Program-made: the position numbers and the translations under genes | Notes under the pieces: generated by a model | Told to the model about the DNA's origin: nothing | Databases searched by the model: none | The model's input: only the letters and a program-made list of their open reading frames with translations | Virus record (IMG/VR): IMGVR_UViG_3300045988_179014 | Span: 256,001-320,000 of that record | Strand: one strand, 5' to 3' | Source: a virus | DNA: 64,000 bases | Part shown: one piece after another, positions 7,489-64,000 of the stretch | Position numbering within the stretch: the first letter of the stretch is position 1 | How the letters are laid out: each line of letters starts with the position of its first letter

Positions 7489-7509
7489 TATGGGTATGAT
7501 GATGCTAAT

Positions 7510-25383: not shown

Positions 25384-26058
25384 TTGATTTTTGTGAAACT
25401 TGTTGTAGCGGAATGTTCAGCCATCTATAGTGGTCGGGGTGATACCACACTGGCACGCGGTCGCAGAGCCATCATGATTAAAGGTGATGGTTCAGTCTCA
25501 ATTCACAATGATGTGGGCAACAAACCGTTGAACTACATGAAACAACCCACTTTCTCTGAAACATTGAATTCTGACGGAGAAAGGGTATGGACTTTTGATG
25601 CTCGTCATGAATCCTTATCCATCACACTTCATCAAGTTGTTTTGGAAACAGCAATGGATTTGATTGGTGAACATGACCCTGGTTTGGTACGTGATGGGAC
25701 TGAAAACCAATTACAAGCATGGATTGCCGAACACCCTGAAGTACTTGGTGAAGGTTTTAGTCTGGTGAAACGTGAATACCCAACAGAAAACGGACCTGTG
25801 GATTTACTGGTTTTGGACAACATGGGTCTTCCTGTTGCTGTGGAGGTCAAACGTGTTGCTATGTTGGGTGCAGTTGACCAAGCCAGAAGATACATGGATG
25901 CGCTGAAAAGCCAACCCTACAATCCTGAGCTGCCTTTTGATTTGACACGTACTCGGGCCATGATTGCAGCAGTTGACATCAGACCAAAAACGATAGCTTT
26001 GGCGGAAAAACGAGGAATCGCGTTACGAACCATTCCTAGTGATTGGAAAACACTGTAA
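25384..26058 (+). CDS. nucS: endonuclease NucS (EndoMS), mismatch-specific RecB-like nuclease
   Basis: 'VKLVVAECSAIYSGRGDTTLARGRRAIMIKGDGSVSIHNDVGNKPLNYM' closely parallels the NucS N-terminal domain. C-terminal 'VDLLVLDNMGLPVAVEVKR' is the PD-(D/E)xK nuclease core. Confidence 0.8.
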   Translation: MIFVKLVVAECSAIYSGRGDTTLARGRRAIMIKGDGSVSIHNDVGNKPLNYMKQPTFSETLNSDGERVWTFDARHESLSITLHQVVLETAMDLIGEHDPGLVRDGTENQLQAWIAEHPEVLGEGFSLVKREYPTENGPVDLLVLDNMGLPVAVEVKRVAMLGAVDQARRYMDALKSQPYNPELPFDLTRTRAMIAAVDIRPKTIALAEKRGIALRTIPSDWKTL

Positions 26059-46332: not shown

Positions 46333-46365
46333 TTAAACAATTCTTTCAATCAACTCACAAAAAAT

Positions 46366-46396
46366 GTGGAGTCATGTTGATACGGCATGACTCCAC
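46366..46396 (-). terminator. rho-independent terminator/attenuator between the PP2C and M23 peptidase genes
   Basis: Perfect 11-bp stem (GTGGAGTCATG / CATGACTCCAC) with a 9-nt loop, followed on the minus strand by AUUUUUUGUG. Confidence 0.55.
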
Positions 46397-46408
46397 ACTG
46401 AGACGGTG

Positions 46409-47176
46409 CTAGCGATGAGCTATTACCAACGTTGTATCATCAACCACTTTCTCTTTATCATCCATATAATCTAGAAATGCTTGCACATCCATGCCATCAT
46501 CTTCCAATGCTCTCTTCACAACAGGATTCCAAAACCCGGGGGAGGGAGCATTTTCAGCTATGGACACATTTTCCAACCCATCAGATGACAATGAAATGGC
46601 AACAATAGGTTCATCACCTGAATAATACAATGGTTGGTAATTGTTGTTTCTACTTGTCAACAATGTGGTCAGATTCGCAAATTCGCCTATTTTATCTGGT
46701 CGAATCAGAGTATGATGATTGTTTGCATATGACACAACCGCAAATGCGTCCCCAACCACTGCTACTGCCCATGTGTCACCACTGATAGCGGCAAGAGCAA
46801 TCGTGCAACCTATTTCTTCATGGTCATCTCGGTCCAACAAGGCATGACGAGCGGCTTCCAAACCTTTTTGTACTGCACCCATTGTATCTATGCCGTCATT
46901 GAGTGCATCCATGGTTTCTGCTACTGATGTGGATGCAGCGATAGAGGCTCCGATATCTGACAATCGCAAGCTCCCAGCACCATCAGCTACCGCAACAACT
47001 GTATGTCCATTTTCCTGCAAACTGGCATATGCATCTTGGTTGTTTTTATTGTTTACTTTGTTATGGGGACCTGTTACAGTACCAGCATTGACAGTTACAT
47101 TCAAGGAAGTCTCCCCTCTGTCGAGTACATCATGGGAGAAAATATCACTCCGAATATGAAAACCAGTCCAAATCAC
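46409..47176 (-). CDS. PP2C-family Ser/Thr protein phosphatase
   Basis: 'NQDAYASL' and 'VVAVADGAGS' PP2C metal-site motifs. Downstream 'DD..TLVI' C-terminal Asp. The start overlaps the last array gene by 32 nt. Confidence 0.7.
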   Translation of the reverse strand: MIWTGFHIRSDIFSHDVLDRGETSLNVTVNAGTVTGPHNKVNNKNNQDAYASLQENGHTVVAVADGAGSLRLSDIGASIAASTSVAETMDALNDGIDTMGAVQKGLEAARHALLDRDDHEEIGCTIALAAISGDTWAVAVVGDAFAVVSYANNHHTLIRPDKIGEFANLTTLLTSRNNNYQPLYYSGDEPIVAISLSSDGLENVSIAENAPSPGFWNPVVKRALEDDGMDVQAFLDYMDDKEKVVDDTTLVIAHR

Positions 47177-48290
47177 TAAGCTCCAATTTCAAAGATAATG
47201 GTAATTCTGGATTGGTTTCAGATAAGGAAACAATGTCTTCTTGCAGTTTGAGAGACTTGCACAATACTTGAACAACTAATTGTGGCGCTCCCTGAATATT
47301 GTTTTCTTCCAAATCTGACATGTGTTGCAACAAATCCTCAAAATCACTACTACCTAACTTGAGATAAAGGTAAACGAACGGACTAAGAGGGTTGTATCTA
47401 CCATAGAAGACGGGAAGAGCCAATTGAGTTCTAGCTGTTATGGTATTGAAGTCATTGGTTTCTTCATATGTCATGGCACCTGATAAATACGTCGGGTGAG
47501 GTTTTGGTGCACGATACTCATAGAAACCCATCATACAAGCTTTTTCACTGAAGTCGATAAGGAAATTTTGCCGTACTCGCGCTAAATGGAGTTTGGTATA
47601 GCGGTTATCCCATATATACCAGTTTGACTCCATTATTGCTTTGACTTGTTCCAGAGAATATGACAACATTTCTCGTTGTTCTTCAGGAGACAAATACAAG
47701 AACATGGGAACAATTACACCCAGATAAATTTTTAAATCTGGATATGCTTTTGTCAGTAAGTATAAATTTTCAAGTGAGTACGGATTAGCTCGGTGTTGAC
47801 AGGACTGGTTGTTGAAATATGGCATGTACCCGTCAAAATCAATTTGGGCTATGAATGGGTTTCTTAAATTATAGCGACTCTGCTGATGTCGCAAAAATGA
47901 CCATTCAGTCAGGTGCTCTGATACATAGAAACCATGTTGCCATAGAATCAAAAGTTGCACCAGATGCCTTAACCGTTCTCGTTGATGTGGATAGTCGCAA
48001 ATCAACGCCAAGACTCGCGAATCCTCATCATCAAGACGTAACTGTGGGTCATGAAAATGAGGGTTGAAATCTTCAGTAATTGGGCTCGTATCTGGATTTT
48101 CTAGCAATGCAAAATCTTCACTCAACGTATTCAATTGTTGAAAGGACAAAGCGTCTTTGCTTATTATCAAACCACGAGTTGACATATCTGGAGTAAAATC
48201 ACATACTTGACCATCTAAGGTAACAATGATTTCTTCAGAAGACAACGCCAACAATTGCTCTTGTGTTATAGGTTTGATTGAATGACTCAT
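47145..48290 (-). CDS. tandem-array paralog 1 (381 aa) of an uncharacterised family
   Basis: Shares the family core: N-terminal 'IIVTLDGQVCDF...GLIIS..LSFQQL', 'HFHDPQLRLDDEDSRVLALICDY', 'ANPYSLENLYLL', 'LHLARV', 'YLYLKLGSSDFEDLL', and C-terminal 'ELPLSLKLELSDLDWFSY'. Confidence 0.7.
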   Translation of the reverse strand: MSHSIKPITQEQLLALSSEEIIVTLDGQVCDFTPDMSTRGLIISKDALSFQQLNTLSEDFALLENPDTSPITEDFNPHFHDPQLRLDDEDSRVLALICDYPHQRERLRHLVQLLILWQHGFYVSEHLTEWSFLRHQQSRYNLRNPFIAQIDFDGYMPYFNNQSCQHRANPYSLENLYLLTKAYPDLKIYLGVIVPMFLYLSPEEQREMLSYSLEQVKAIMESNWYIWDNRYTKLHLARVRQNFLIDFSEKACMMGFYEYRAPKPHPTYLSGAMTYEETNDFNTITARTQLALPVFYGRYNPLSPFVYLYLKLGSSDFEDLLQHMSDLEENNIQGAPQLVVQVLCKSLKLQEDIVSLSETNPELPLSLKLELSDLDWFSYSE

Positions 48291-48355
48291 GTACTTTTCC
48301 TCTATTTAGACCAATCTTTACTGGGTTTCTTCCGAATAATGGTTTTACTCGGTTG

Positions 48356-49528
48356 TCATTTCTTGTAGGAGAACCAATCCAAGTCGCTTAGTTCCAGTTT
48401 CAATGACATTGGCAACTCAGGGTTTTCCTGTGATATGTCAACAATCAATTCTTGCAGTTCAAAAGAATCCAACAGTGTACTAATTACAGATTCTTTCGTC
48501 CCAGAAACCTCATCCTGCTGATTTAACTCATACACGTATCGTATAAAAGCTTCAAAATCAGCACTACCCAATTTAAGGTACAGGTAAATGAACAGTTCTG
48601 GTACTCCACGTTTGCTGGTGAGATACTCAATTGGAAACATCAACGGGAACCGAGATACAATTGAATTGAAATCATTGGCCTCATCAGGTGTCATTGAACC
48701 AGAGTTTTCGGTTTTGACTGATGATGCCCTATATGAGTCTATGAATGAGAAACAAGCTAAGCTACCAGTAGAAATAGGGTACTTGTTCCGTATTCGTTCC
48801 AGATGCAGTTGAACGTAGCGTTCATCATCCAGGTACCAATACGATGTTGCCAATATTTCCATTTGTGCTGGGGTGTAGGACATGATTTCTTCTTGCTCTT
48901 CTTGTGGTAAACACATGAAAAACTGTTCTAGTGTTTTAGGGTGGAAGAAGACATCAGGATACATGTTTCTCATCCTGTACAAGTTTTCCAAGAAGTAAGG
49001 ATTGGCACGATGCTCGCAAGCTAATTCATGGAAACGGGTTATCAAGTTTGCATTAAACATGCGGACCATGGCGAAAGGGGCGAAACCTAAAACACGACTC
49101 TGGTATTTAGCCAACGAATGTTCCGTGACTGCTTCTGATACATAAACACCATGTTGCCAATGAACCATAAGTTGAAGTAAGCGCTCTAACCGTTCTATCT
49201 CAAGTGGATGGCAACAAACTAACTTCAACACCCGTACCTGTTCATCATCAAGACATAGTTGTGGTGTATGAAAATGCTGAAAACTGTTAGCGGGCTTTTT
49301 CAACTTTGACATACTTTGAACAGTTGTCAGGTCGGAACTCAATTTTACCAGTTGTTGAACTGACAAACCATTATTGGGTATTACCAAACCTTGAGTACTC
49401 GTGTCAATACTGGAATCAAAATCCAATATTTGGCCTTCTAGCGTAACCATGATGTATTCACTAGTTTCTGATAACCCCAAGGAATTCTGTTCCTCACAAA
49501 CGCACATGATAGCATTCTTCCAACACAA
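48356..49528 (-). CDS. tandem-array paralog 2 (390 aa)
   Basis: Same motif set; ends '...ELPMSLKLELSDLDWFSYKK'. Confidence 0.7.
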   Translation of the reverse strand: MCWKNAIMCVCEEQNSLGLSETSEYIMVTLEGQILDFDSSIDTSTQGLVIPNNGLSVQQLVKLSSDLTTVQSMSKLKKPANSFQHFHTPQLCLDDEQVRVLKLVCCHPLEIERLERLLQLMVHWQHGVYVSEAVTEHSLAKYQSRVLGFAPFAMVRMFNANLITRFHELACEHRANPYFLENLYRMRNMYPDVFFHPKTLEQFFMCLPQEEQEEIMSYTPAQMEILATSYWYLDDERYVQLHLERIRNKYPISTGSLACFSFIDSYRASSVKTENSGSMTPDEANDFNSIVSRFPLMFPIEYLTSKRGVPELFIYLYLKLGSADFEAFIRYVYELNQQDEVSGTKESVISTLLDSFELQELIVDISQENPELPMSLKLELSDLDWFSYKK

Positions 49529-49549
49529 ATCCAGTTTTCAAAACAACCC

Positions 49550-50704
49550 TTAATAGGATTGCACTCGTCTCAAATAGTCACCCAAATCAAACAACTCCAA
49601 TTTCAGAGATAGTGGCAGTTCTGCGTCATGGTTGGATATAGCAATAATCTCATCCTGCAATTCGAGAGAATCAGCTATAATATTTAGTGTATGCCCCTTT
49701 CTCTCGAAGAATGTTGCCATATCCTGTTTTTGCATATACTGCAACAAGTCCTCGAAGGCACTACTACCCAACTTGAGGTAAAGATACATCAGCAGGTGTA
49801 CGATATGTTCGTACAAGAAATCATCGTATTCCAAGTTTTCTATGATTCTTTGAAAATCTTTTGCCTCCTCAATGGTCATCGCATAGGATGTACGTATTCT
49901 TCTATGCGGCATTGAGGTCTCAAACGTGAATAGAATCAGTGGTAGATTCTTTCTCACGCGTTCCAAATGCAATTGCAGATATCGTGTGTTATCAGCGCAC
50001 CAATCCGAATCCATCATTGCCCGCACCTGATTCTCGGTATGAGAATGAACTAGCTCTTCCTGCTCCTCTTTTGAAAGATGCATAAACACATCCACCATAT
50101 TGCGAGGAGGGAATCTGATATCAGGATACTTTTCCACCAATGAATACAAATTCTTCAATGAATGTGGGTCAGGAGAATGACTGTCAATCCATATATTGAA
50201 CCAACACAAAAACCCATATCCGCAATCAGCCCTATCTATTTTCACCATGAACGGACTGACTTGATAGGAGTCATAGTGTTCATGAAAACTTGCCAACGAT
50301 TTGTTCAGCATCTTCTTAGACACATGTATGCCATGCTGCCTAAGGATAATAAACTGTTCCAAATGAGGCAATCGTTCTTTTTGAGGGGAATGGTCACAAA
50401 TCAATCTCAGGACTTTTGCATCTTTCCCCTCAAAATGCAACAATGGCGCGTGAAAGTGAAGCGCCTCCAGATACGATGATTCCCTAGCCCGAGCAATACG
50501 CTTTCTTATCCATTTGATGTCTTTGCTCAGTTTTTCTATCCTTTTTGATGAGAACATATTGCATGGAACTACTAATCCCACATCCTTTACATGTGCTGAC
50601 TCGAATTTACAAACATCTCCATCCAAAGTAATGAGGACTTTTTGAGAATTGGACTTTTCCATCATGACAGCACTCCTCTTGGGCGTCCTTTCTATGCGTT
50701 CCAA
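49550..50704 (-). CDS. tandem-array paralog 3 (384 aa)
   Basis: Same motif set: 'LICDHS', 'LHLERVRKNLPL', 'YLYLKLGSSAFEDLL', and C-terminal 'ELPLSLKLELFDLGDY'. Confidence 0.7.
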   Translation of the reverse strand: MERIERTPKRSAVMMEKSNSQKVLITLDGDVCKFESAHVKDVGLVVPCNMFSSKRIEKLSKDIKWIRKRIARARESSYLEALHFHAPLLHFEGKDAKVLRLICDHSPQKERLPHLEQFIILRQHGIHVSKKMLNKSLASFHEHYDSYQVSPFMVKIDRADCGYGFLCWFNIWIDSHSPDPHSLKNLYSLVEKYPDIRFPPRNMVDVFMHLSKEEQEELVHSHTENQVRAMMDSDWCADNTRYLQLHLERVRKNLPLILFTFETSMPHRRIRTSYAMTIEEAKDFQRIIENLEYDDFLYEHIVHLLMYLYLKLGSSAFEDLLQYMQKQDMATFFERKGHTLNIIADSLELQDEIIAISNHDAELPLSLKLELFDLGDYLRRVQSY

Positions 50705-50812
50705 TACAAATTTATTGGGGTTCTATACATAGAGAATACCAGCCAAGACCATTAAGTTCAAGCTTCAGTAGCATAAACACTGTAGAGCCAACCTTGATGC
50801 TGTACCAATCTT

Positions 50813-50840
50813 GTCCTGTAATTTTGGTTTTTTACAGGAC
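50813..50840 (-). promoter_or_regulatory. 9-bp perfect inverted repeat (GTCCTGTAA-N10-TTACAGGAC) in the 310-bp gap between array paralogs 4 and 3
   Basis: Read from the sequence. The flanks are not strongly U-rich, so its function is unresolved. Confidence 0.3.
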
Positions 50841-51014
50841 ACGCAGAAACGCTAATTTCGGATGTCCAAATTTTAGCACTTTGAGTGAAATTCGATGATG
50901 AGCATTTTTCTCCATACGCTCTCGAACTGATTTTCCTGTTTTTAAGGACTTTAATCAGTTTTGTCTTATTATCCTTGACGGGAAAACCATGCAGAAACAC
51001 TAATCCTGAAACTT

Positions 51015-52268
51015 CTATAGATAGTAATTTTGAATCAAAATCCTATCCTGTCTGCTATATCGACCACTCATTAACCAGTTGTCATATGCTTTTTCTCCAT
51101 ATGCTTGAACGAGTCTTTCATTCTCAGTTTTCACATATGAATACCAATCCAAATCACTAAGTTCGAGTTTCAGCGACATGGGCAATGCGGAGTCAAGTTT
51201 TGATGCTGCAATAATTGCTTCCTGCAATTCAACCGAATGATACAAAATATGAACCATAGGGCTCTTGTCGTGTCTATCATTTCTATCATTGTTTTGCATA
51301 TATCTCAACAATTCCTCAAAATCGTTACCCCCGAGTCTGAGGTATAGATAAACAAGCAATCTTATGAATACTACTTGAGAAGCTACTTCATAACAATGGG
51401 GAACAACAAATCCGAGTCGAGCTATAATGTCTTCAAACTCATTCATTTCGTCAAGATTTAGTGCACATATGCGCATTGGTTCATCACCACAACATACTGG
51501 TACTTTAAGCGTCATGTCATAAGCATCAATGCCTTTCCTTATACGCGAGAAATGAATCTTTCGATAACGCGCATCAGAGAAATACCAATCCCCTTGAAAA
51601 ACAGTTGTTCTAAGACCTAAAGAACCCCCAAATACTGGGTACACTTCTTGATTCTTTTGAAACAAACAGAGAAGCGCTGGTAGTACCCAAATACCATGAC
51701 CAAACATGCCTCTTCTGCGCTTCTTGGCAAACTCTTCCAGTAGCTCCAACACATGAGCATTAACAGGATGGTCACACACCCAGTCATTGAAGTCTGGTTT
51801 TTTAACCCACTCATCATAACTGATTTCAAACATTACGAATGGAATATTTTCTTTAATAACATTATCCAGTACTGAGAGTAGAACTGAATCGCGCCAGGTT
51901 GACAATGACTGCTTCGCCAGACGTTCAGAAACATAAATATTATGTTGTCGAAACACTATGAATTGTTTCAAATGGGATAATCGTGCTTGTGAATCTGGCC
52001 AATCCAGAATCGCTCTCAGCACTTTTAAGTCTTCCCCTTCAAGACTTAACTGCGGTTTGTGAAAATGGGATTCGTCTTTAGAAGCAAAAGAATTTCCCAA
52101 TTCGGCCATATCAGCAGCTAACACCTTCAGTTGTTTATTTGATAACCCTCTACGGGGTATCAACAACCCATATGTTTCATTTGCTGATTGCGCCCATCTA
52201 TGTATTTTGCCATCTAATGAAACTAAGATGGGAGAAACAAACTTTCCTAAAAGGTGCTTAAACAACAC
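51015..52268 (-). CDS. tandem-array paralog 4 (417 aa), C-terminally extended variant
   Basis: Family motifs are present, but 'LICDH' is replaced by 'AILDWP', and there is a ~35 aa extension after '...LSDLDWYSY'. Confidence 0.65.
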   Translation of the reverse strand: MLFKHLLGKFVSPILVSLDGKIHRWAQSANETYGLLIPRRGLSNKQLKVLAADMAELGNSFASKDESHFHKPQLSLEGEDLKVLRAILDWPDSQARLSHLKQFIVFRQHNIYVSERLAKQSLSTWRDSVLLSVLDNVIKENIPFVMFEISYDEWVKKPDFNDWVCDHPVNAHVLELLEEFAKKRRRGMFGHGIWVLPALLCLFQKNQEVYPVFGGSLGLRTTVFQGDWYFSDARYRKIHFSRIRKGIDAYDMTLKVPVCCGDEPMRICALNLDEMNEFEDIIARLGFVVPHCYEVASQVVFIRLLVYLYLRLGGNDFEELLRYMQNNDRNDRHDKSPMVHILYHSVELQEAIIAASKLDSALPMSLKLELSDLDWYSYVKTENERLVQAYGEKAYDNWLMSGRYSRQDRILIQNYYL

Positions 52269-52344
52269 AAAGCTCCCCTATTTTATAGACTAAATTGATA
52301 ATCACAATTCTAGTCTCAGGGGAGCCACGTGTCAATTCTGGCTA

Positions 52345-53400
52345 TCAAAACACCAGCTGTACCAACTCTTCATTGGGGTCTTCCTCAGCCAACTGCTGAA
52401 GAAGCTTTTCAAACTTTTTGCTACCGAGTCTGAGGTAGCAATACAAAAACCTTGTAACAAAAACCTTACTGAGATAATAATATTTATTTGGAATTCTGAA
52501 ACTGGTGCAGTCCAGAATTTCCTGAAGTTCAGCTGCCTCCTCTGCGGTCAGGACATGATTTGGCAGAAGAGTACAATCATCTTCCTTCTTGTACCATGCC
52601 CTTAGAACATTTTTCTTGATGGGAAGATTCTCTTCCTGCACTCGTTTTCTGTGAAGCTCCCGGTACTCAGGATTCGCGAAGTCCCAATCAGCTTCCAGAG
52701 TACGCTTGATATGGGATGGCTCCCAGAGACGAAGCTGCTGCTGTTGCTCATCTGTCAGCCCCACGAACCATTTAAAAGTAGTGAATTGAATCTCTTGTAC
52801 TTCTGGGGTTTTTTCAAGAAGAGCCCATAGATTCTCTAGGACATGTGGATTCACCTCATGAGAATCCAGGCAAAGTGACGTTATAGACCGTTTCGGAGGA
52901 TTTTTAACATATGGCGCAAATGGTACGTTTTGACTCATTGTTTTCATATCCCAATACCTTGACATAGCGGCCAAGGATATTTTCGTCAGTTCGGTTGGCA
53001 CATACACCCCGTTCTGCCGAAAAATCAAGAAGTCAATCAGGTGCGCTACGCGTACATATTTATGCGGTTGGTCACAAATCAGTTTCAATGTTTCCAGGTC
53101 ATCATCCTGGATATGTAGAGGATTGTTGAAATGACATCTTGATTCCAAAGGTTCCAAGGAATTTCTGTGATGGTTGCCCAAATCAGTTCTAAGAGTATTC
53201 AATTGGTCCTCAGTCAGAGCACCTTTGGACAACACAATACCAACCACTTTGGTCTTTTTACCAAGGTGAACAGTGCCATCTAGGCCAACCGTAATGAAGT
53301 GAGTACCCCCACAAGCCGTAATGAACTTCTCAAACTGTCGTACAATGGCTTCCATTTCCGCGTTTCCCTTTCTGCGATTCGTATGAGAACAGACTATCAC
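52345..53400 (-). CDS. tandem-array paralog 5 (351 aa), divergent and C-terminally truncated copy
   Basis: Retains 'LICDQP', 'NPHVLENLWALL' and 'YCYLRLGSKKFEKLL' but lacks the LPLSLKLEL tail. A degenerate remnant of the tail is visible out of frame. Confidence 0.55.
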   Translation of the reverse strand: MIVCSHTNRRKGNAEMEAIVRQFEKFITACGGTHFITVGLDGTVHLGKKTKVVGIVLSKGALTEDQLNTLRTDLGNHHRNSLEPLESRCHFNNPLHIQDDDLETLKLICDQPHKYVRVAHLIDFLIFRQNGVYVPTELTKISLAAMSRYWDMKTMSQNVPFAPYVKNPPKRSITSLCLDSHEVNPHVLENLWALLEKTPEVQEIQFTTFKWFVGLTDEQQQQLRLWEPSHIKRTLEADWDFANPEYRELHRKRVQEENLPIKKNVLRAWYKKEDDCTLLPNHVLTAEEAAELQEILDCTSFRIPNKYYYLSKVFVTRFLYCYLRLGSKKFEKLLQQLAEEDPNEELVQLVF

Positions 53401-54563
53401 ATGTGTGAAGACCTGTCAAAACCGCTGAGTTGGAATCTCAAGGAGAAAGGTAGTGCGGAGTCCAGCTTTGAGACTGCAATAATCGTTTTCTGTGCTTCAA
53501 CAGCCCCATACAGTGCATTTGACAGAAGCTTCCAGTCTTCCTCGTTTTGTTGGCAATCACGTAAATATTGCAGAAACTCTTCAAAATCTTTACTACCAAT
53601 TTTGAGGTACAGATAGATGAAAGATTTGAAGCTTCGATATCGCGAAAATGAATTGTCATATAGAGGGCCAAGTTCTGAACGTTCTATAATTGCTTGAAAA
53701 TCATTCGCTTCATTCTGTGTCATGGCACAAACAGACCATGTATCATCATATCGCCCTGATTTCACATTGAAGGAAAACTTTACAATTGGAAGGTTTTGTT
53801 TCAATCGGTCTAGGTGAAATGTCTTGTATTGTTCATCCCATATGTACCAATCTGATGCCATTAGTGCTCTAACATATTCTGAAGTGCAAGAACACAATGC
53901 TTTTTGTTCTTCTGATGACAAACACATAAAAACTCGCAACATGGGTTCATAACTAATTTTGACATCAGGGTGGCTTTTGGTCAACAAATACAGGTTTTCC
54001 AATGTATATGGATTACATGGGTGTTCGCATATCCAATTGTTGAAGTCTTGTGACAATTCCAGGCCATAACGAAAACTGTTGGTAATTTGAACCATGAATG
54101 GAACAGCGTTATATGTGCCATTGTTCCAATATATGTGCAAATCGGATAATGATTGTTTAGCAACCCATTCGGGGATATGAACACCATGTTGCAGAAGGGT
54201 CAGAAATTGACTCAGGTGTGCTTCCCTCTCCCCTTGTAATGGATGGTCACAAATCATTTTCAGTACGTCCACATTTTCACTGTCAAGATGTAATTGAGAT
54301 GTATGAAAATGCAATAATGACATCAACATGCTAGAACCAAATCCTGTTTCCAGCCGAGCAATGTCCTGTCTCAATGTTGTTAACTGCTGTGGGGACAAAA
54401 CACCTTTGGGGAACACTACGCCTTGGACTGAAGACACCTTTGAATCCAAATCATACACTTGACCGTTTAGTGTGACTACGATTTTCTCAGTAGATTCACT
54501 GGTGTTTTCAACAGATTTGAAATACTCTTGCTGTGGTTTACTGCGTGAATGATGACTATGCAT
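53397..54563 (-). CDS. tandem-array paralog 6 (388 aa)
   Basis: Family motifs; tail 'ALPFSLRFQLSGFDRSSHM'. ATGA overlap with paralog 5. Confidence 0.7.
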   Translation of the reverse strand: MHSHHSRSKPQQEYFKSVENTSESTEKIVVTLNGQVYDLDSKVSSVQGVVFPKGVLSPQQLTTLRQDIARLETGFGSSMLMSLLHFHTSQLHLDSENVDVLKMICDHPLQGEREAHLSQFLTLLQHGVHIPEWVAKQSLSDLHIYWNNGTYNAVPFMVQITNSFRYGLELSQDFNNWICEHPCNPYTLENLYLLTKSHPDVKISYEPMLRVFMCLSSEEQKALCSCTSEYVRALMASDWYIWDEQYKTFHLDRLKQNLPIVKFSFNVKSGRYDDTWSVCAMTQNEANDFQAIIERSELGPLYDNSFSRYRSFKSFIYLYLKIGSKDFEEFLQYLRDCQQNEEDWKLLSNALYGAVEAQKTIIAVSKLDSALPFSLRFQLSGFDRSSHM

Positions 54564-54603
54564 TTTCCAGTTTCATTGATGTGAGTGTGTTTTCAGATTT
54601 CAC

Positions 54604-55752: not shown

Positions 55753-55796
55753 AATATTTGTGCATCCTGATTGATGTAATTATTTAACAGTTAAAC

Positions 55797-56954
55797 TTAT
55801 GATGACGTATCAATGTATGGCGCAAAATCCAAATCACTAAGCTCTAATCTCAAGGACAAAGGAAGTTCGCAGTCCTGTTTTGAGAGAGCAATGATTAACT
55901 CCTGTAATTTGGTAGAATCGCACAACGTCTTTACAATAGATTTTTTCTCGTGACTACCATTTTGACAATCTCTTAAATAAGACAAAAGCTCGCTGAAGTT
56001 CTCACTTCCCAATTTGAAATACAGATAAGCAAATATACCAAAAATTGGCAATACAGACCGTCCCATATGACGGCTATGAAGAATGACAAACTGGGTTCGG
56101 TCAAGAATTGCTTGAAAATCTTCCGCCTCAGCCTGAGTCATAGCACAAATCAACTCGGATACAGTGAAAATTTCCCCGTTGTTTTCAAATTTCATTACAA
56201 ATTGGTATTCAACAAGAGGGACGTTTTTCTTAACCCGCTCCAAATGAAGCAAACGAAGGGATTCATGGGTCTTATACCAGTCACAATCCATTATGGTCTT
56301 GATTTGATGGGATGTATAACCAATCATCTCTTGCTGTTCTTCATGCGACAAATGTATGAAAACACGCAAACCGGTTCTATAATCAATTCCTGTATTGACA
56401 GGGTGTTTTCGGGCTAGTAAGTGCAAGTTCTCCAATATATGGGGAGTTACCGGGTATTTGCATATGTAATATTTAAAATCTGGGCACAACCACTCATATG
56501 ACAAACCACTATCACTTTCAATCACATGTGCAGGGTGGCGTAATGATTGTTGTGTTACCCATTCAGGCACATATATATTGTGTTTTCTGAAATACAGGAA
56601 ATTCTTCAAGTGATTTCGTCGTTTCTGTTTATGAGGATGGTCACAAATCAACCTCAAATTTTTTATATCTTCTTCAGTTTCAAACTGAGGTAGATGGGGA
56701 TGACGACACAGCTCTTTATAGTTATCGTGAAACCGCAAAAAATTAAAGTCTTCTTTCAATGTATTTAATTGCTGTTCAGATAAAGCATCATGTGGCAAAA
56801 CCAAAAAACCTGGAAGTACGAAGCTTGAATCAAAATCGTATATTTCAGCGTTCCAAGTAATAGCGATTCGTTTTGAGTCGTTGGGAGAATGAGGCGATTG
56901 TGCTACCAAAGGTGACATTGGATGCTGACAATTCATGAAGTACTTTCCTTGCAA
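55797..56954 (-). CDS. tandem-array paralog 8 (385 aa), subtype A
   Basis: Family motifs. About 75% identical to paralog 10 in the N-terminal region ('KRIAITWNAEIYDFDSSFVLPG'). Confidence 0.7.
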   Translation of the reverse strand: MQGKYFMNCQHPMSPLVAQSPHSPNDSKRIAITWNAEIYDFDSSFVLPGFLVLPHDALSEQQLNTLKEDFNFLRFHDNYKELCRHPHLPQFETEEDIKNLRLICDHPHKQKRRNHLKNFLYFRKHNIYVPEWVTQQSLRHPAHVIESDSGLSYEWLCPDFKYYICKYPVTPHILENLHLLARKHPVNTGIDYRTGLRVFIHLSHEEQQEMIGYTSHQIKTIMDCDWYKTHESLRLLHLERVKKNVPLVEYQFVMKFENNGEIFTVSELICAMTQAEAEDFQAILDRTQFVILHSRHMGRSVLPIFGIFAYLYFKLGSENFSELLSYLRDCQNGSHEKKSIVKTLCDSTKLQELIIALSKQDCELPLSLRLELSDLDFAPYIDTSS

Positions 56955-56988
56955 CTAGGCCATTTACAGGATTGAAAAACGACATTAC

Positions 56989-58083
56989 TCACTTGGTACA
57001 CAATTCTCCGTCCAAATCATAGAGTTCAAGCTTTAACGACAATGGTAGCTCACAATCCTGTTTCGAGAGCGTAATGATTGACTCCTGAAACTTGGTAGAA
57101 TTACACAACATTTTTACAATAGAGTCCCCGTTTTTACAACTACTGCTTGGGTAATCCCGCAAGTAGTACAGTAGCTCTTCGAAATTCGCAGCACCAAGTT
57201 GAAAATACAAATAAACGAATGGGCTAATTTGACCTGATGATATGTAGACATCCTCGGGAACAACGAATTGAGTTTTTTCAAAAATCCTCTGAAAACACTC
57301 TGCCTCATTCAGCGTCATTGAAGAAATTGTCATTGTTGCACTATATATTTTGCTGTCACATTCAAATTTTATAACAAGCGAATAATCTGAAATAGGCAGA
57401 TTATTTCTCACCCGCTCCAAGTAAAGTGTCTGCCAATGTGGGTGAGCCTCATCCCAACCACATTCCATTACATTTTTGATTTGCTCAGGTGTGTAGGAAT
57501 GAACTATCTCGCTTTGCTCTTCTTGCGACAGCCTCAGGAACGCCCCTCGTACAATATTGCTACGATACATCTTTATATTTAGATGCTCTTTTTTAGCGAG
57601 TAGATGCAAGTTTTCTAATGTGTGTGGATTGACTGTTTTTAAACGTACCAAGAAATTAAATTCCCTCAATAACCAATAGGCCAACGACTCATTCTCCATT
57701 TCAATCATGAAAGGAGCTTGGCACTCATTGGATGAGGACAAGGATTGTTTAGTCATCCATTCTGGTACGTAAATTCCATAGTGCCGCAAATACAGGAATT
57801 GCTTTAAGTGGTCAAATTGTTCCCACGAATCATTATGGTCACAAATCAGTCTCAGCGACCTGACATCTTCGTCATTATCGAGACGCAAATGAAACATACG
57901 TCCATGACTATAATGAAAATCCCGCAGCTCTGTCATAGAATCCGTCAAGATGTTAAGTTGTGTTTCTGACAAACCATCCTGCGGTAATACTATCCCTTGA
58001 TAGTTTGTGTCTTTAGCATCAAAATTCCGAACCTTGTCATCATAGAAAGGAATGAGGATTAAACTGGAACTAGGTGACAGCAA
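56989..58083 (-). CDS. tandem-array paralog 9 (364 aa), subtype B
   Basis: Family motifs. Pairs with paralog 11 ('LILIPFYDDKVRNFD' and the tail 'LKLELYDLDGELCTK'). Confidence 0.7.
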   Translation of the reverse strand: MLSPSSSLILIPFYDDKVRNFDAKDTNYQGIVLPQDGLSETQLNILTDSMTELRDFHYSHGRMFHLRLDNDEDVRSLRLICDHNDSWEQFDHLKQFLYLRHYGIYVPEWMTKQSLSSSNECQAPFMIEMENESLAYWLLREFNFLVRLKTVNPHTLENLHLLAKKEHLNIKMYRSNIVRGAFLRLSQEEQSEIVHSYTPEQIKNVMECGWDEAHPHWQTLYLERVRNNLPISDYSLVIKFECDSKIYSATMTISSMTLNEAECFQRIFEKTQFVVPEDVYISSGQISPFVYLYFQLGAANFEELLYYLRDYPSSSCKNGDSIVKMLCNSTKFQESIITLSKQDCELPLSLKLELYDLDGELCTK

Positions 58084-58122
58084 AACACTACTCCTTTACC
58101 CTATTGACTCAATGACATCAGC

Positions 58123-59274
58123 TCAAAACTCATACTGTAGAGCACAAGATTGCTCCATGTACGGGTTCCAGTCAAAACCGCTGAATGTCAACCTCAAAGA
58201 CAATGGTAGCTCACAATGCTGCTTTGATGCAACAATGATTCGCTCTTGTGCTTCATAATAGTCATACAACACTTTGACAAGAGACCTTTTTCGCCTGTTG
58301 TTGCTTTCACAATCTTTCAAGTAATACAGTAGTTCTTCAAAATTTGTGCTACCCAGTTCAAGATATAGATAGACGAACAACCCAAAAACTGATGATGTTG
58401 ACATTGAATAATAACTATTAGGAACAACAAATTGGGTTCTGTCCAAAATTGTTTGGAAATTGTTTGCTTCATCTAACATCATTGCATGAGCCAGTTGTTG
58501 TATACTGGATATTTTCCCTTTGGATTCAAATTGCATTACGAATTGGTGCTCAACAAGTGGAAGGTTCTTCTTCACTCGTTCCAAATGAAGTGAAGATAAA
58601 TTCGCATGGTGGATATACCAGTCACAATCCATTATGGCCTTGATTTGATGAGGTGTATAACCAATCATCTCTTTCTGTTCTTCATGTGACAAATACATGA
58701 AGACATCACAAACAGCCATATGGCTAATTTCCACATTGGGGTGTCTTTTAGCTAGTAGGTGCAAGTTCTCCAATATATGAGGAACTACGGGGTATTCGCA
58801 TATGTAATAATTAAAATCTGGCAGCAGTCCATATGGTAAATCGCTATCAGTTTTAATCATAAATGCGGCTTGGCGTGTAGCTAGTAATGATTGTTGTGTC
58901 ACCCATTCAGACACATATATACCATGTTGCCTGAAATACAGGAAATGCCTCAAATGCCGCAATCGTTTATCCTTGTAAGAGTGGTCACAAATCAATCTCA
59001 ATACTTTGACGTCTTCTTCGGTGTCAAGACGTAGATGCGGTGTATGAAAATGTTCATCCTCGTACAACAAATCCTGTAACGCAGAAACATCTTCTTTCAG
59101 CGTGGTCAATTGCTGTTCAGATAAAGCTCCATGTGGTATGACCAAACCTGGAAGTATGAAACTTGAATCGAAATCGTATATTTCAGCATTCAAGGCCACA
59201 ATGATTCGTTTTGGGCTACTGGTCGAACGAGATGGTTGTGATGCGAAAGGATGTATTAGATGTTTATTATACAT
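58123..59274 (-). CDS. tandem-array paralog 10 (383 aa), subtype A
   Basis: Family motifs; near-duplicate of paralog 8. Confidence 0.7.
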   Translation of the reverse strand: MYNKHLIHPFASQPSRSTSSPKRIIVALNAEIYDFDSSFILPGLVIPHGALSEQQLTTLKEDVSALQDLLYEDEHFHTPHLRLDTEEDVKVLRLICDHSYKDKRLRHLRHFLYFRQHGIYVSEWVTQQSLLATRQAAFMIKTDSDLPYGLLPDFNYYICEYPVVPHILENLHLLAKRHPNVEISHMAVCDVFMYLSHEEQKEMIGYTPHQIKAIMDCDWYIHHANLSSLHLERVKKNLPLVEHQFVMQFESKGKISSIQQLAHAMMLDEANNFQTILDRTQFVVPNSYYSMSTSSVFGLFVYLYLELGSTNFEELLYYLKDCESNNRRKRSLVKVLYDYYEAQERIIVASKQHCELPLSLRLTFSGFDWNPYMEQSCALQYEF

Positions 59275-59328
59275 GATGCTGTATTCTCACTGCCGTTAAA
59301 AGATTCTTGAAATTAAAGCTGGCATTAT

Positions 59329-60423
59329 TCAACTTGGACATAATTCTTCATCCAACACGCTGAGTGCCAAACTCAGAGACAGAGGTAGTTCATAAGCCTG
59401 TTTCGAAAATGCAATAATTGACTCTTGCAACTCACGTGAATCACATAATGTTTTTACAGCAGACTTGTTTTCCTTAGCATCATTTTTGCAATCTCTCAAG
59501 TAATAAAGTAGTTCTTCGAAATTTGTACTACCAAGTTGAAAGTACAAATAAATGAATGAACTAATTCGGTCTGATGACATGTAGATATCCTCTGGGACAA
59601 CAAATTCAGTTCGGTCTAGGATTGCTTGGAAGTTTTCTGCCTCGTCTAGTGTCATCGCACGAATTGGTATTGCGGTATTTTGGATTCTTCCGTTAAAATT
59701 ATTTTTCACAATAAATGGGTACCTTACAATGGGAATGTTCTTCTTGACTCTCTCCAAGTGAAGAGATTGCAGACGTGTACGATGTGCATACCACCCATAC
59801 TCCATTACTGCTTTAATTTGAGCTGCTGTGTAAGAACTGACCATTTCTTCTTGTTCTTCTTGAGACAAATAAACGAAGACCTGTAGGATTCCGCCATAAT
59901 CCAGGTCCATTTCTGGATATTCCGGATATTTGGAAACAAGGGCGTGCAGATTCATCAATGAATATGGATTAATTTGGCACCGACATATTGTGTAATTGAA
60001 GTCTTCCAAGAACGATTCCATCAAACTCTGGTTTCCAATTTTAGGCATAAATGGAGTTCGTTGTGTGGTAGCGAAGAGCAATGATTGCAGTGTCACCCAT
60101 GCAGGAAGGTACACACCATGCTGTCGCAAATACAAAAACTGGTTTAAGTAATCCAATCGTTTTCTTGAATCACAATGGTCACAAATCAACCTTAGAGACT
60201 TGATGTCTTCGTCATTATCAAGACGCAGCTGAGGAATATGACAGTGTCTATCATATAATAACCGTAATTCTGCCATAGAGTCTTTCAAAACGGCAAGTTG
60301 TGATTCCGATAAAGCCCCATATGGTACTACTACCCCACAAATAGTTGAATCCTCGGACTCTAAACATCGAATTTCGTTATACAATGTGACAAGGATTAGA
60401 GGAGGATTGGACAAATCCATCAT
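59329..60423 (-). CDS. tandem-array paralog 11 (364 aa), subtype B
   Basis: Family motifs; near-duplicate of paralog 9. Confidence 0.7.
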   Translation of the reverse strand: MMDLSNPPLILVTLYNEIRCLESEDSTICGVVVPYGALSESQLAVLKDSMAELRLLYDRHCHIPQLRLDNDEDIKSLRLICDHCDSRKRLDYLNQFLYLRQHGVYLPAWVTLQSLLFATTQRTPFMPKIGNQSLMESFLEDFNYTICRCQINPYSLMNLHALVSKYPEYPEMDLDYGGILQVFVYLSQEEQEEMVSSYTAAQIKAVMEYGWYAHRTRLQSLHLERVKKNIPIVRYPFIVKNNFNGRIQNTAIPIRAMTLDEAENFQAILDRTEFVVPEDIYMSSDRISSFIYLYFQLGSTNFEELLYYLRDCKNDAKENKSAVKTLCDSRELQESIIAFSKQAYELPLSLSLALSVLDEELCPS

Positions 60424-60481
60424 AATGGTCTTTCGTCTTCATCAAGTTGATAGCATAATAATAGTACAGAGATAGAACTGA

Positions 60482-61606
60482 TTATTCCACAGAATCCCAG
60501 TCCAAATCATAGAGTACCAATCTCAAAGACAGTGGTAACTCATCTTCTTGGTTTGGGGCAGGAACAATCAATTCTTGCAGTTGAGGGGAATCATATAGTG
60601 TTTTCACAATAGACTCTTCCTTCTCGCTGTTATACTGGCAGTCTTGTAAATACTGTAGCAGTTCTTCAAAATCCGTGCTACCCAGTGTGAGGTAGAAGTA
60701 AACGAACAGCCCAAAAAGTTCATCAGAGAACATGTAAGAAATATTTGAGAAGATATATTTGGTTCGATTCAGGATTGCCTGAAAATCTTCTGACTCCTCC
60801 AATGTCATGGCACGAGCTGATTTTGATACATCAGATACTCCCCATATTGATGTGAATCGAAGAATAAAAGGATAGTTAACAATGGGAAGATTCCGCTTCA
60901 CCCGGTCAAAATGAAGTGACGACAGAAGCGCATGATGTATGTACCAATCACAATCCGTTATAGCTCTAACTTGGTCTGAAGTGTAAGAATGCATGATTCT
61001 TTCTTGTTCACCCTCAGATAGTGTTGCAAACACCTTTAAAGCGCTAATGTAATTAATCTTTATGTTGGGGCGATTCTTGGCTAACCAGTGTATATTCTCC
61101 AATATGTTGGGACTAACAGAAGACTTGCACACTATATGATTAAAATTCATGCCAAACGAGTGTATTGAGCCAACATGACTGATTCCAACCATAAACAGCT
61201 CCCAATCCACAGCCAACAAAGACTCTTGCGTGAGCTGCTCTGAGACACGGATTCCATGCTGTCTTAAATATAGAAACTGCTTTAGATGTTCCACCCTGTT
61301 TCGTGAACACTTATGGTCACAAATCAATCCCAGCACTTTTATGTCTTCTTCACCATCAAAACGCAGTTGAGGAATATGACAATGTTGGTTGTGTAAGGGA
61401 CGTGATAACCAGACATCCTTTTTCAACACGGTTAATTGCCGTTTGGACAAAGCATTCTTCGGTATGACCAAACCGCGAATGACAGAGACCTCAGAATCGA
61501 AGTCTACCACATCACCGTCCAATGTGACCATTATTGAACCAGAATTCAATATTTTCTTCATAATGCATATTCCCTTGTTTTCATTGATTGGATAGTTCAA
61601 GTTCAT
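60482..61606 (-). CDS. tandem-array paralog 12 (374 aa)
   Basis: Family motifs; tail 'ELPLSLRLVLYDLDWDSVE'. Confidence 0.7.
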   Translation of the reverse strand: MNLNYPINENKGICIMKKILNSGSIMVTLDGDVVDFDSEVSVIRGLVIPKNALSKRQLTVLKKDVWLSRPLHNQHCHIPQLRFDGEEDIKVLGLICDHKCSRNRVEHLKQFLYLRQHGIRVSEQLTQESLLAVDWELFMVGISHVGSIHSFGMNFNHIVCKSSVSPNILENIHWLAKNRPNIKINYISALKVFATLSEGEQERIMHSYTSDQVRAITDCDWYIHHALLSSLHFDRVKRNLPIVNYPFILRFTSIWGVSDVSKSARAMTLEESEDFQAILNRTKYIFSNISYMFSDELFGLFVYFYLTLGSTDFEELLQYLQDCQYNSEKEESIVKTLYDSPQLQELIVPAPNQEDELPLSLRLVLYDLDWDSVE

Positions 61607-61621
61607 ACTATAGTACGAAAA

Positions 61622-62721
61622 CTATCCTATATATGAATCCCAGTCCAAATCATAGAGTTCAAGTTTCAACGACAATGGTAATTGAGGGTTCTCCTCTGAA
61701 ATGGAAACAATCATTTCTTGTAGTTCGAAAGAATTGCACAATAAGCTCACAATAGCTCCTTGTTGATTACGAGAATAGTTTTGCAGGTATTGCAGCAATT
61801 CTTCAAAATCTGTACTACCAAGTCTGAGATACCAATAAACCAGTGAACAAAAAGGTTATTGGATGTCCGATACATTTCATCTGTAACCACGAACTTGGTT
61901 CTCTTCATAATCGCACAATAATCATGAATCTCGTTTGATGTCATGGCGCGAACCGACTTGTATACGTTAAATGCTCTTGTTGTAGATGTGAGCCTTATAA
62001 CAAAAGTGTATACAACAATAGGAAGATTCTTCTTAACTCGCTCTAAATGAAGAGAACGAAGGGATTCATGACCTCTGTACCAATCACAGTTTAAGACGGC
62101 TTTAATTTGGTTTGATGTATAGGAGTACACCACTTCTTCTTGTTCTTCTTGTGACATCCATATGAAGATTTTCAGAATACCATCATAGTTGTTCTTTATG
62201 TTGAAATGTTTCTTACCTAGTAGATAGATGTTTGTCCAAGTGTGAGGATTTATGGAATGCACACAAATGTAGTAATTGAAACTCCCCAGAAAAGAACTCA
62301 TTGATTCGTTGCCCCCAATTTTAAACATGAACGGGGTCTGGTGAGAATTTGACAATGACTCTCGTGCCAACCATTCTGGTACATGAATACCATGTTGCCT
62401 AAAAATCAGAAATTGCTCTAAATGAGACACACGTTTTTGAGACTGAACATGGTCACAAATCAACTTCAAAACCTTTATCTCTTCTTCCGATTCAAGGCAT
62501 AGTTGAGATTTGCGTTGATGATGCATTTCATATTGAGTTCTTCTTAATTGGGCAACGTTGTCTCTCAGCGTTGACAACTGTTCTTCTGACAAAACGTCTT
62601 TTGGTAGAACTATGCCACAGGGTATAACCTCAGAATCAAAATCCAAAACTTCACCGTCTAATGTGACAATAATTTGGTTTGAACAGGAAGACTTCAAGTT
62701 AGCATTAAGGTGATTACTCAT
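61622..62721 (-). pseudogene. tandem-array paralog 13, disrupted by a frameshift near 61850-61860
   Basis: The ORF-track product (61747-62721) ends abnormally ('...FVHWFIGISDLVVQILKNCCNTCKTILVINKELL'). The canonical C-terminus 'LVYWYLRLGSTDFEELLQYLQ...LPLSLKLELYDLDWDSYIG*' is encoded in another frame and ends at the TAG at 61622-61624. Confidence 0.6.
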
Positions 62722-63886
62722 AACTATTGGCCTTTAACACAGTTGAAATTCGACGCCTTCGGGAGAAAGAAGATGAGTCCCATTCCAGCCCACTGAGAAC
62801 CAACCTCAAGGACAGTGGCAATTCACGATTCTGCTTTGAAACATCAATAATCGACTTTTTCATTTCTGAAGAATTGCACAACAGCGTTTTTATGAGAGTC
62901 TCCTTTTCGGAATGCTCGCAATTTTGTATATACTGAACCAATTCCTCAAAATCCGTACTGCCCAATTTCAGATAATAGTAAAACAACACACCAAATATTT
63001 CTTCAGGCGTTGTATCAATACTCTCCGGAACGGCAAATTCAGTTCGGTTTAGAATGGATTGGAAGTCATCTGCTTCATCCAACGTCATAGCCATAATAGA
63101 GATTTTAGCGTCGTACACCTTTCTTTTGGAGGAGTACCTTATAATAAATGAGGAACGAACAACTGGGGTATTTGCTCTGACTCGGTCCAGATGTAGATTT
63201 TTGAGAAGGGCGTCATCCAAGTACCATGAACTCCCCATTATTGCCATAATTTGGTCGAATGTATAGTAATTGATTATGGTCTCTTGTTCATCTTGCGTCA
63301 AACAAAGAAACATTCGTAAAATAGCATCATAGTTTATCACCATATTCGGATATTTCTGTACCAACAAATATACGTTTTCCATAGAATATGGATTTATTGA
63401 CATATGGCATACCCAATCCTCAAAATTCTCTATAGGACTAGAACCTGTCGTACTGATTTACACTATGAATGGAACAATGGTGAATGCTCCTTGGTCCCAA
63501 TAATAGTGAAAATCTGACAATGATTGTTTAGTCATTGTCTCAGATAAATATATGCCGTGTTGACGAAGATAAACAAAATATTCCAAATGAATAGCACACT
63601 CTACTAGGAATGGGTGGTCGCAAATCAGGCCTAAGACCTTTACGTCCTCATCGCTAAGTTTTAAATGACGAGTATGTATATGAATTGACCGATGAAATGT
63701 ACCAGGTAATAGTTTTAGGCATCTTGTCAACATAGACAGTTGAGTTTTGGAAAGAGCATTGTTTGGCAGTACTAGACCAGGAATCATCAGTTCCGAGTCA
63801 AAATCTAGGACCTCCCCATCTAACGTGACAATAATTTGACCCGAGCTAGAACTTTTTAACGCTATACTACTTGAATCATGACACAT
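62714..63886 (-). pseudogene. tandem-array paralog 14, interrupted by a single in-frame TAA (63458-63460)
   Basis: The N-part ORF 63458-63886 and C-part ORF 62714-63403 are in the same frame. The 18 codons between them read through as 'ISTTGSSPIENFEDWVCH' and align with the other paralogs. Confidence 0.55.
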
Positions 63887-63917
63887 AGTTACCTCTTAAT
63901 GCAGTTCACAATTGTAT

Positions 63918-64000
63918 TCATAATGTTTGACAAGAAGGATACGAGTTCCAATCCAATCCATTGAGAGCAAATCTCAAGGATAATGGCAATTCACGATTTT
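63918..64000 (-). CDS. tandem-array paralog 15, C-terminal 27 codons only; gene continues beyond the window end
   Basis: The minus-strand frame encodes '...ELPLSLRFALNGLDWNSYPSCQTL*', the family C-terminal tail. Confidence 0.55.
   Translation of the reverse strand, partial: NRELPLSLRFALNGLDWNSYPSCQTL

Follow-up and report, generated by a model that had tools for sequence, protein, structure and literature searches.

The 64,000-nucleotide stretch of DNA analyzed here (the window) covers positions 256,001 to 320,000 of the IMG/VR virus record IMGVR_UViG_3300045988_179014, and its far end is occupied by a tandem array of paralogous genes. From position 47145 to 64000, the open reading frame listing and the translations show an unbroken run of minus-strand genes that encode co-directional paralogs of about 380 residues, with a period of 1.14 to 1.23 kb between copies. 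Within the window, 12 copies are intact (W02–W13), two are freshly broken (W14 and W15) and one, the 16th (W16), is represented by its 3' end only, in agreement with the original prediction, made by a model from the letters alone, of at least 15 same-strand paralogs. The paralogs align over their full length with the consensus motif scaffold that had been proposed, but its C-terminal tail is lacking in the short subclass to which W06 belongs. The array had also been called uninterrupted, which is correct for the continuous same-strand run but not for the 352-nt gap between W05 and W04, which holds the tail relic of a lost copy.

In the direction of transcription, and all on the minus strand, the windowed part of the array begins with the last 83 nt of W16 (63918–64000), which encode a tail (...ELPLSLRFALNGLDWNSYPS). 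Next come the two disrupted copies, called against intact orthologs with 93–97% DNA identity. W15 (62714–63886; orthogroup A) is a young pseudogene with one in-frame TAA codon at 63458–63460, where the intact ortholog has GAA, and W14 (61622–62721; orthogroup B) is frameshifted by a 1-nt deletion near 61848, after a run of five T, and has 97% DNA identity to the intact ortholog of the sister element L009. The intact copies are W13 (60482–61606; orthogroup C), for which the likely start codon gives a protein of 359 residues (60482–61561), W12 (59329–60423; D; 364 residues), W11 (58123–59274; M; 383 residues), which is the copy modeled in full below, W10 (56989–58083; 364 residues), which represents orthogroup P, found only in the element of the window, W09 (55797–56954; N; about 379–385 residues), W08 (54604–55752; E), which is the first gene of a constant 3' core, W07 (53397–54563; F; 388 residues), W06 (52345–53400; G; about 336–351 residues), which represents a conserved short subclass without the last two helices and the tail, W05 (51015–52268; H; 417 residues), which has a C-terminal extension of about 35 residues, W04 (49550–50704; I), W03 (48356–49528; J) and W02 (47145–48290; K), which is the last gene of the array. 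The intergenic gaps measure 31–65 nt, with three exceptions, being the 8-nt overlap of W15 and W14, the 76-nt gap between W06 and W05 and the 352-nt gap between W05 and W04, in which the C-terminal tail of the lost copy (LLKLELNGLGWYSL / MLLKLELNGLGWYSLCIEPQ*) is located at 50712–50774. Neither long identical repeats nor inverted repeats occur in the array region, and for lack of the latter phase variation by a shufflon-like mechanism is rejected.

The complete array is seen in a metagenome contig of 337,400 bp (ena:ERZ27262748:k119_28504, referred to as L004), which is 100% identical to the window from 50482 to 64000 (13.5 kb). It consists of a divergent half-copy of 234 residues, which leads the array and matches the C-terminal half of the family (hmmsearch E-value 4e-7), followed by 16 units, the first of which is W16, with its remaining part at 6529–7644 of this contig (371 residues). 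Upstream of the half-copy are an opposite-strand gene for 81 residues, a gene for a restriction endonuclease (REase)-like protein of 135 residues, a gene for a DUF4379 treble-clef zinc-finger protein and a gene for a vWA protein of 232 residues.

No transmembrane segment is found in the array proteins (maximum Kyte–Doolittle hydropathy over 19 residues, KD19, ≤1.51) and their isoelectric points range from 4.8 to 6.6, so that the label "cytoplasmic-looking" of the original prediction holds. The best-conserved blocks are residues 91–130 and 301–320 and the tail at residues 351–370, and the most variable ordered element is the hairpin at residues 241–265. In 61 copies, the polar residues Q116, S129, Q200, H230, R233, E269, Y302 and Y304, and also C96, R104 and H107, are invariant or nearly so. 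These residues, the confident globular model described below and a neighborhood that encodes a metabolite-biosynthesis pathway are consistent with a new catalytic family of diversified specificity, acting on nucleic acids, proteins or metabolites of the Ter pathway. Enzymes are nevertheless a quite unlikely explanation, as no catalytic fold or motif is matched, the HFH and CDH motifs vary among the copies, and an operon with sixteen paralogous enzymes would be out of the ordinary.

The AlphaFold2 model of W11 has a predicted local distance difference test score (pLDDT) of 85 and a predicted template modeling score (pTM) of 0.79, and the model of W06 has a pLDDT of 82. The acidic, Ser-containing C-terminal tail (ELPLSLKLELSDLDW) is kept in all copies except those of the short subclass, its serine being conserved at 85–95%, and in the W11 model it is folded into ordered helices with a pLDDT of 87. 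In the short subclass, the last 45 or so residues, including the "ELPLSL" tail, are lacking in every element, and because this class is still modeled at a pLDDT of 82, the tail is predicted to be dispensable for folding. A conserved acidic and hydrophobic tail on otherwise diversified proteins, a secreted M23 peptidase encoded nearby and the phage-like character of the element would also suit a set of effectors that are secreted or translocated, or of proteins packaged in the virion, with a C-terminal export or packaging signal in common (the ELPLSL...DLDW tail). Such a role is very unlikely: conservation spans the whole body of the protein and not a signal alone, the tail is predicted to be ordered, a conserved subclass does without it, and no gene for a secretion ATPase, a WXG100 protein or a type IV secretion system (T4SS) is present over the window and the 7.5 kb upstream. 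Arrays that are long, tandem and composed of diversified cytoplasmic paralogs are typical of immunity loci, and the layout here resembles theirs. A repertoire of immunity proteins directed against polymorphic toxins is however highly improbable, since no toxin, LXG, Rhs or contact-dependent inhibition (CDI) gene is nearby, no array member matches Imm, SUKH or DUF600 families, the proteins, being multidomain and about 380 residues long, are much larger than usual immunity proteins, and the family is limited to one lineage of elements. Both functions, immunity repertoire and secreted effectors, had been among the candidates of the original prediction, and both are without contextual support.

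The family is not recognized by any of the resources that were searched. In searches with single members, none of the profiles of Pfam, NCBIfam, PHROGs and PADLOC is matched with confidence; in a Pfam search over 29 aligned members at E-values up to 1, nothing is recurrent, no Pfam family is hit by more than two of the 29, and the best E-value is 0.027. The family profile finds no match among PDB sequences, and no fold in PDB or BFVD matches the W11 model. Among 5.8 billion clusters, a word-indexed search yields just 18 matches, all of them unnamed and from metagenomes. When 1.84 billion representative proteins are scanned exhaustively with HMMER, 12 family members are returned, together with one match rejected as spurious (P0026), a GBP-like eukaryotic protein that has eight helical repeats. 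No relatives are found in scans of the GTDB species genomes, made for the array family and for RecN, no relative of the array family is found in IMG/VR, and none is found among PLSDB plasmids and GenBank phages by megablast and tblastn. No publication describing the array was found either. By sequence, the array proteins are therefore a new and orphan family, as had been proposed, with relatives confined to one lineage of human-oral metagenome contigs of about 337–347 kb. Their fold is probably new too, when judged against PDB and BFVD. A possible distant relative is a 442-residue orphan protein encoded within the window (35538–36866, minus strand), whose last 100 or so residues (...DFEALLKDL...KLPLSLLMHMEGLD) weakly resemble the C-terminal module and the tail of the array proteins (hmmsearch E-value 0.0095 within the window; hhalign E-value 0.0022, at a probability of only 13%). 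The family of this protein is shallow, with just two further clusters in the database of 5.8 billion clusters. Its gene has a 4-nt overlap with a start-proximal thioredoxin-reductase-like gene.

The original prediction placed the array next to a signaling module, which understates the case, as the array lies inside a triad of vWA, PP2C and Ser/Thr kinase (STK) genes of the TerY-P type. The PP2C-type Ser/Thr phosphatase gene (46409–47176, minus strand; Pfam PP2C_2, 1.4e-28) directly follows the array. It is succeeded on the same strand by the gene of a secreted M23 peptidoglycan endopeptidase with a signal peptide (45415–46332; Pfam 1.4e-25) and by the kinase gene (43493–45358), which encodes 621 residues with a zinc-ribbon-like motif, a linker rich in Ser and Pro and C-terminal transmembrane segments. 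The kinase domain is matched by Pfam Pkinase at 33.3 bits, against a cut-off of 31.7. The motif after it, C-x5-H-x8-C-x2-C (C317, H323, C332 and C335), is invariant in 14 aligned homologs and is not matched by zinc-ribbon models. More than 400 full-length metagenomic homologs of this kinase are found, and none from an NCBI or UniRef source is among the 120 matches listed. The third component, a TerY-like vWA protein of 232 residues, is encoded beyond the end of the window (positions 2581–3279 of L004; Pfam VWA, 30.4 bits against a cut-off of 23.8), and the "DASDS" and "TDG" motifs of its metal-ion-dependent adhesion site (MIDAS) are visible in the ortholog of the sister element L001.

The gene order vWA, PP2C, STK is found in all seven related giant-element loci that carry the triad, five of which are on contigs of 83–420 kb that are classed as viral in IMG/VR, and in four of the seven (L006, L015, L016 and L017) the three genes are contiguous. 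The array family is absent from all seven. In the lineage of the window the triad is not contiguous, as about 21 kb, comprising the array, the half-copy and the DUF4379/REase unit, separates the vWA gene from the PP2C gene, and the M23 gene, an insertion seen in this lineage only, separates the PP2C gene from the kinase gene. Because the gene order is conserved in relatives without the family, it is the array that was inserted into a conserved triad. Also at the vWA–PP2C junction are the DUF4379 gene, which encodes three treble-clef zinc-finger repeats, and the overlapping gene of the 135-residue REase- or homing-endonuclease-like protein (3365–4791 of L004), a pair that looks like a selfish unit.

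The locus L006 shares the synteny downstream of the triad with the window (HAD_SAK_2, a methyltransferase, M50/RseP and NrdI), and its kinase is 52% identical to the kinase of the window. Two genes were examined as remote relatives of the array, a 393-residue gene between the vWA and PP2C genes of L007 and a 383-residue gene of L006, and both were rejected at an hhalign probability of 0.1%. Just upstream of its contiguous triad, L006 has three tandem paralogous lipoprotein genes (2938–5315; 41–46% identity by BLASTP; lipobox "SATAC"), which are unrelated to the array family and were rejected as its relatives.

There is an overlap of 32 nt between the 3' end of W02 and the start of the PP2C gene, and the PP2C gene is followed by the sole strong terminator. 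This intrinsic-terminator-like hairpin (46354–46402, minus strand), directly after the PP2C stop codon, was spotted by eye and then confirmed by folding; it has a 13-bp stem followed by six U (−22.8 kcal/mol, z-score −3.45). Because of the overlap and the position of the terminator, the array and the PP2C gene are probably co-transcribed as one unit, a prediction made from the gene layout. Consensus scans for promoters and terminators gave counts at chance level. The best sigma-70-like site of the array region (52307–52335, minus strand; TTGACA-17-TAGAAT, 11 of 12 positions) is in the gap between W06 and W05, and may be an internal promoter.

The array family is found only in human oral metagenome contigs, whose sizes include 337,400, 343,299, 344,797, 344,889, 344,924 and 347,407 bp, and these near-equal sizes suggest a complete replicon. 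As to the recurrence of such arrays beside kinase, PP2C and M23 genes, which the original prediction proposed to look for, the array has an identical position in all six loci that carry the family, all of them within the oral lineage. Two of these contigs (L002 and L003) are near-identical, so that the six loci represent five distinct layouts. With the orthogroups derived by clustering all copies, and with L* for the leader half-copy, fs for a disrupted copy and J* for a truncated copy, the layouts read, from 5' to 3', L* A A(fs) B(fs) C D M P N E F G H I J K in the element of the window, L* A A B C D M O E-K in L009, A A B C D M O E-K in L010 (whose contig starts within the array), L* A B C D N E-K in L001 and L* C D E-I J* K in L002. 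The seven 3' genes (E–K) are constant, the 5' and middle parts gain and lose genes, and there are 9–16 copies per element.

Inside one element the paralogs are 25–61% identical, with a median of 36% and with 58% for the best pair of the window, values lower than the 35–75% that had been estimated. For each paralog, sister elements carry a syntenic ortholog, mostly with an identity of 88–98% (73–83% for W06, W09 and the comparison of W13 with L002). The ratio of nonsynonymous to synonymous substitution rates (dN/dS) of orthologs is 0.12–0.34 for the array genes and 0.07–0.10 for the flanking STK, PP2C and M23 genes. The synonymous divergence (dS) between sister elements is very uneven along the array, from 0.03 to 0.79, with a 25-fold difference between adjacent genes, which hints at mosaic recombination between elements. 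Ortholog variation is diffuse, not focused on one surface, and tracks the paralog variability (Spearman 0.59).

The one-to-one syntenic orthologs and the purifying selection indicate maintained genes and not decay. It is true that two of the 15 window copies are disrupted and that one relic is present, as would be expected of decaying pseudogenes or noncoding repeats, but this explanation is refuted for most copies and has a negligible probability overall, as dN/dS is 0.12–0.34 in all testable orthogroups, all full-length copies of L009 and L010 (14 in each) are intact, and the AlphaFold2 models are confident. The old divergence and the lack of long identical or inverted repeats show that the copies are old and individually maintained, with birth and death ongoing at one end of the array. 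The statement of the original prediction that the array is a dedicated system and not a random duplication is thus borne out in its second half, by orthology and selection, and its first half is a plausible interpretation.

The reading favored here, to which a probability of roughly 35% is given, is that the array is a diversified adaptor or substrate repertoire wired to a TerY-P-type phospho-switch. A lineage-specific, anciently diversified set of 16–17 soluble cytoplasmic paralogs on a giant oral element, inserted between the vWA (TerY-like) and PP2C genes of this switch, would be expressed from a single long operon in which the PP2C gene comes last. The paralogs would be interchangeable adaptor or substrate modules, that is, clients of the phospho-switch. 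Their conserved core (LICDHP...RQHGIYVSEW and YLYLxLGSxDFEELL) would contact a common partner, which may be the kinase, the PP2C phosphatase or the MIDAS site of the vWA protein, and the Ser-containing acidic tail, present in most copies, would also contact this partner. The variable β-hairpin (residues ~241–265) and the loops would give each paralog its own target, which may belong to phage–host or inter-element conflict or to stress sensing. This reading is favored because the array genes are closely spaced and the last of them overlaps the PP2C gene, with a terminator only after the latter, because seven of seven related elements without the family keep the triad order, because the array sits at the same place in all six family-carrying loci, because every full-length copy of L009 and L010 is intact, because the syntenic orthologs are under a dN/dS of 0.12–0.34 with the tail and its serine conserved, because cargo operons inside TerY-P modules have precedent (PMC11090510), because the surrounding 40 kb is a Ter stress/defense island, and because the second orphan protein (35538–36866) may share the C-terminal module and the tail.

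Several observations weigh against the adaptor/substrate reading. An interaction of the array proteins with the triad, or their phosphorylation by it, is only a tentative proposal. Specific matches to the TerY-P antiphage system of PADLOC were not found for the three triad proteins, for which PADLOC returns generic matches for the kinase (mad6 and PD-T4-6), a weak match for PP2C (5.5e-4) and none for the vWA protein. The unrelated DUF4379/REase-like insertion at the same junction suggests that the site may just tolerate insertions. Focused diversifying selection was sought within the orthogroups and not found, the variation being diffuse and not on one surface. The tail, being modeled as ordered, may play a structural part instead of being a docking motif, and the novelty of the fold is a statement relative to PDB and BFVD only.

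The main rival, only slightly less probable than the favored reading, is that the array is an independent cargo, in which case it would be a phage or giant-element family of host-takeover or anti-defense proteins, expanded by birth and death in a permissive triad junction and with no tie to kinase signaling. The DUF4379 and REase-like unit in the same junction fits this explanation, as do the different tandem family of three lipoproteins beside the triad of the related element L006, a copy number that varies (9–16), the 5' half gaining and losing genes, the two fresh pseudogenes and the relic, and the ART-PolyVal gene of the window together with the viral classification of the relatives of the element in IMG/VR. 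An independent cargo does not readily explain that W02 overlaps the PP2C start with no terminator before the end of the PP2C gene, that the position of the array is invariant in all six loci, that the seven 3' genes are constant and not accordion-like, and that there is no recent amplification, with no pair above 61% identity and no long identical repeats. A bolder and unlikely reading is a new class of modular repertoire, of receptors or adaptors, built on a new protein fold and encoded by a giant oral phage-like element. In this case, each of at least 16 paralogs would sense a different invader or host cue and would report to one vWA/PP2C/STK switch, which would make up an innate-immunity-like or counter-immunity-like system of one switch and many sensors, in which the variable surfaces sense and the conserved core and the tail report.

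The first 43 kb of the window form a Ter stress/defense island, with repair and other genes alongside. On the minus strand, it includes genes for a weakly matched vWA protein (4690–5634), an R2K ATP-grasp protein (6619–7488), StiP with PELOTA (8782–9945), PRTase_2 with TRSP (9942–11267), a C-C bond lyase (11271–12443), three TerD proteins (13180–13731, 15655–16236 and 16277–16873), TelA (14325–15554) and DUF475/TerC (16909–18000). A complete Ter-type island (4690–18000) on a giant phage-like element is in itself unusual. Also encoded in the window are RecN, NucS, NrdF and NrdI, a ResIII helicase and an ART-PolyVal protein. The helicase is part of a 1062-residue protein with a T5orf172 domain (28779–31967, minus strand), which in PADLOC resembles type IIG restriction-modification enzymes. 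A divergent adenylosuccinate-synthetase-like gene is located at 3593–4693 (minus strand; NCBIfam PurA at 122 bits, against a cut-off of 402), with a weak secondary match to PurZ (4.5e-9), the enzyme of phage 2-aminoadenine (Z-base) synthesis.

The G+C content of the window is about 41% (38–46% across it), nearly all genes are on the minus strand, and the GC skew of the plus strand is steadily negative; no tRNA genes are found in the 64 kb. The gene of the NucS/EndoMS endonuclease (25384–26058) is among the very few on the plus strand. This mismatch-repair nuclease is typical of Actinobacteria and Archaea, and its presence in the window, together with that of Lsr2 in a related element, points to Actinobacteria. 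The closest database affinities of NrdF, of a 487-residue protein and of the C-C lyase are with Gordonia and Rhodococcus phages and Mycobacteriales plasmids. From its gene content, the host of the element is probably an actinobacterium. The gene of the ART-PolyVal ADP-ribosyltransferase domain protein (18767–19570, minus strand) and an open reading frame with a weak match to the PHROG "head morphogenesis" (24373–25164, minus strand; 3.5e-9) hint at a phage or another DNA-injecting mobile element. The carrier is probably a phage-like giant DNA element of about 340 kb from the human mouth, and may be a jumbo phage or a megaplasmid. Circular jumbo phages of more than 300 kb are common on the tongue dorsum (bioRxiv 10.1101/2020.07.06.186817).

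If the array is wired to the TerY-P-type switch, it would be the first candidate client set for this long-enigmatic kinase/phosphatase/vWA module, and would show that one signaling switch can serve a diversified repertoire. Regardless of the wiring, it is a confidently modeled family without sequence or structure relatives, kept in 9–16 copies on a prevalent, undescribed oral element of about 340 kb. The array is a tractable entry point to giant phage- or plasmid-like oral elements and to phage–host conflict in oral Actinobacteria.

Comparison with known systems shows partial similarities. Like the immunity arrays of type VII secretion systems and polymorphic toxins (for example EsaG/DUF600), the array has same-strand, diversified cytoplasmic paralogs and a strain-variable copy number; unlike these, it has no toxin or secretion genes nearby and no homology to immunity families, its proteins are two to four times larger and multidomain, and its seven 3' genes are strictly conserved one to one. 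The T4-like hyperplastic internal-protein (Ip) loci and the paralog accordions of large DNA viruses, which are thought to serve host–virus conflict, share with it a variable tandem set with gain and loss, a virus-like genome and a short conserved terminal motif. In the array, however, the whole scaffold of about 380 residues is conserved and not a targeting peptide alone, the paralogs are ancient (25–61% identity) without a sign of recent amplification, and the motif is at the C-terminus, where it is predicted to be ordered.

As for the carrier, Inocles are giant extrachromosomal elements of oral Streptococcus of about 350 kb (PMC12340149), and the element described here is likewise of human oral origin, of similar size (~340–350 kb), absent from reference databases and made up mostly of unknown genes, with stress and DNA-repair cargo. 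It is rejected as an Inocle on the basis of its G+C content, 41% versus 32% or 24% (PMC12340149), and of its actinobacterial and actinophage gene affinities.

The closest parallel of the locus is the TerY-P triad, which as published consists of a TerY-like vWA protein, a PP2C phosphatase and an STK fused to a zinc ribbon, and is proposed to be a phosphorylation switch (Anantharaman et al.; PMC11090510; PMC4978471). Phage defense has been shown for modules related to TerY-P (PMC11090510; PMC4978471), and cargo operons inserted within TerY-P modules have been described (PMC11090510). The triad of the present locus also has a small vWA protein with an intact MIDAS, a PP2C phosphatase and an STK whose kinase domain is followed by a conserved Cys/His motif, and it adjoins a Ter island (three TerD proteins, TelA, TerC, StiP, PRTase and the C-C lyase). 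It differs in that the kinase has C-terminal transmembrane segments, that an M23 peptidase gene is also inserted, and that the cargo is not an ATPase or secretion operon but a set of 16–17 orphan paralogs. No report of such an array in a TerY-P context was found. The setting of the array is an unprecedented variant of a known switch.

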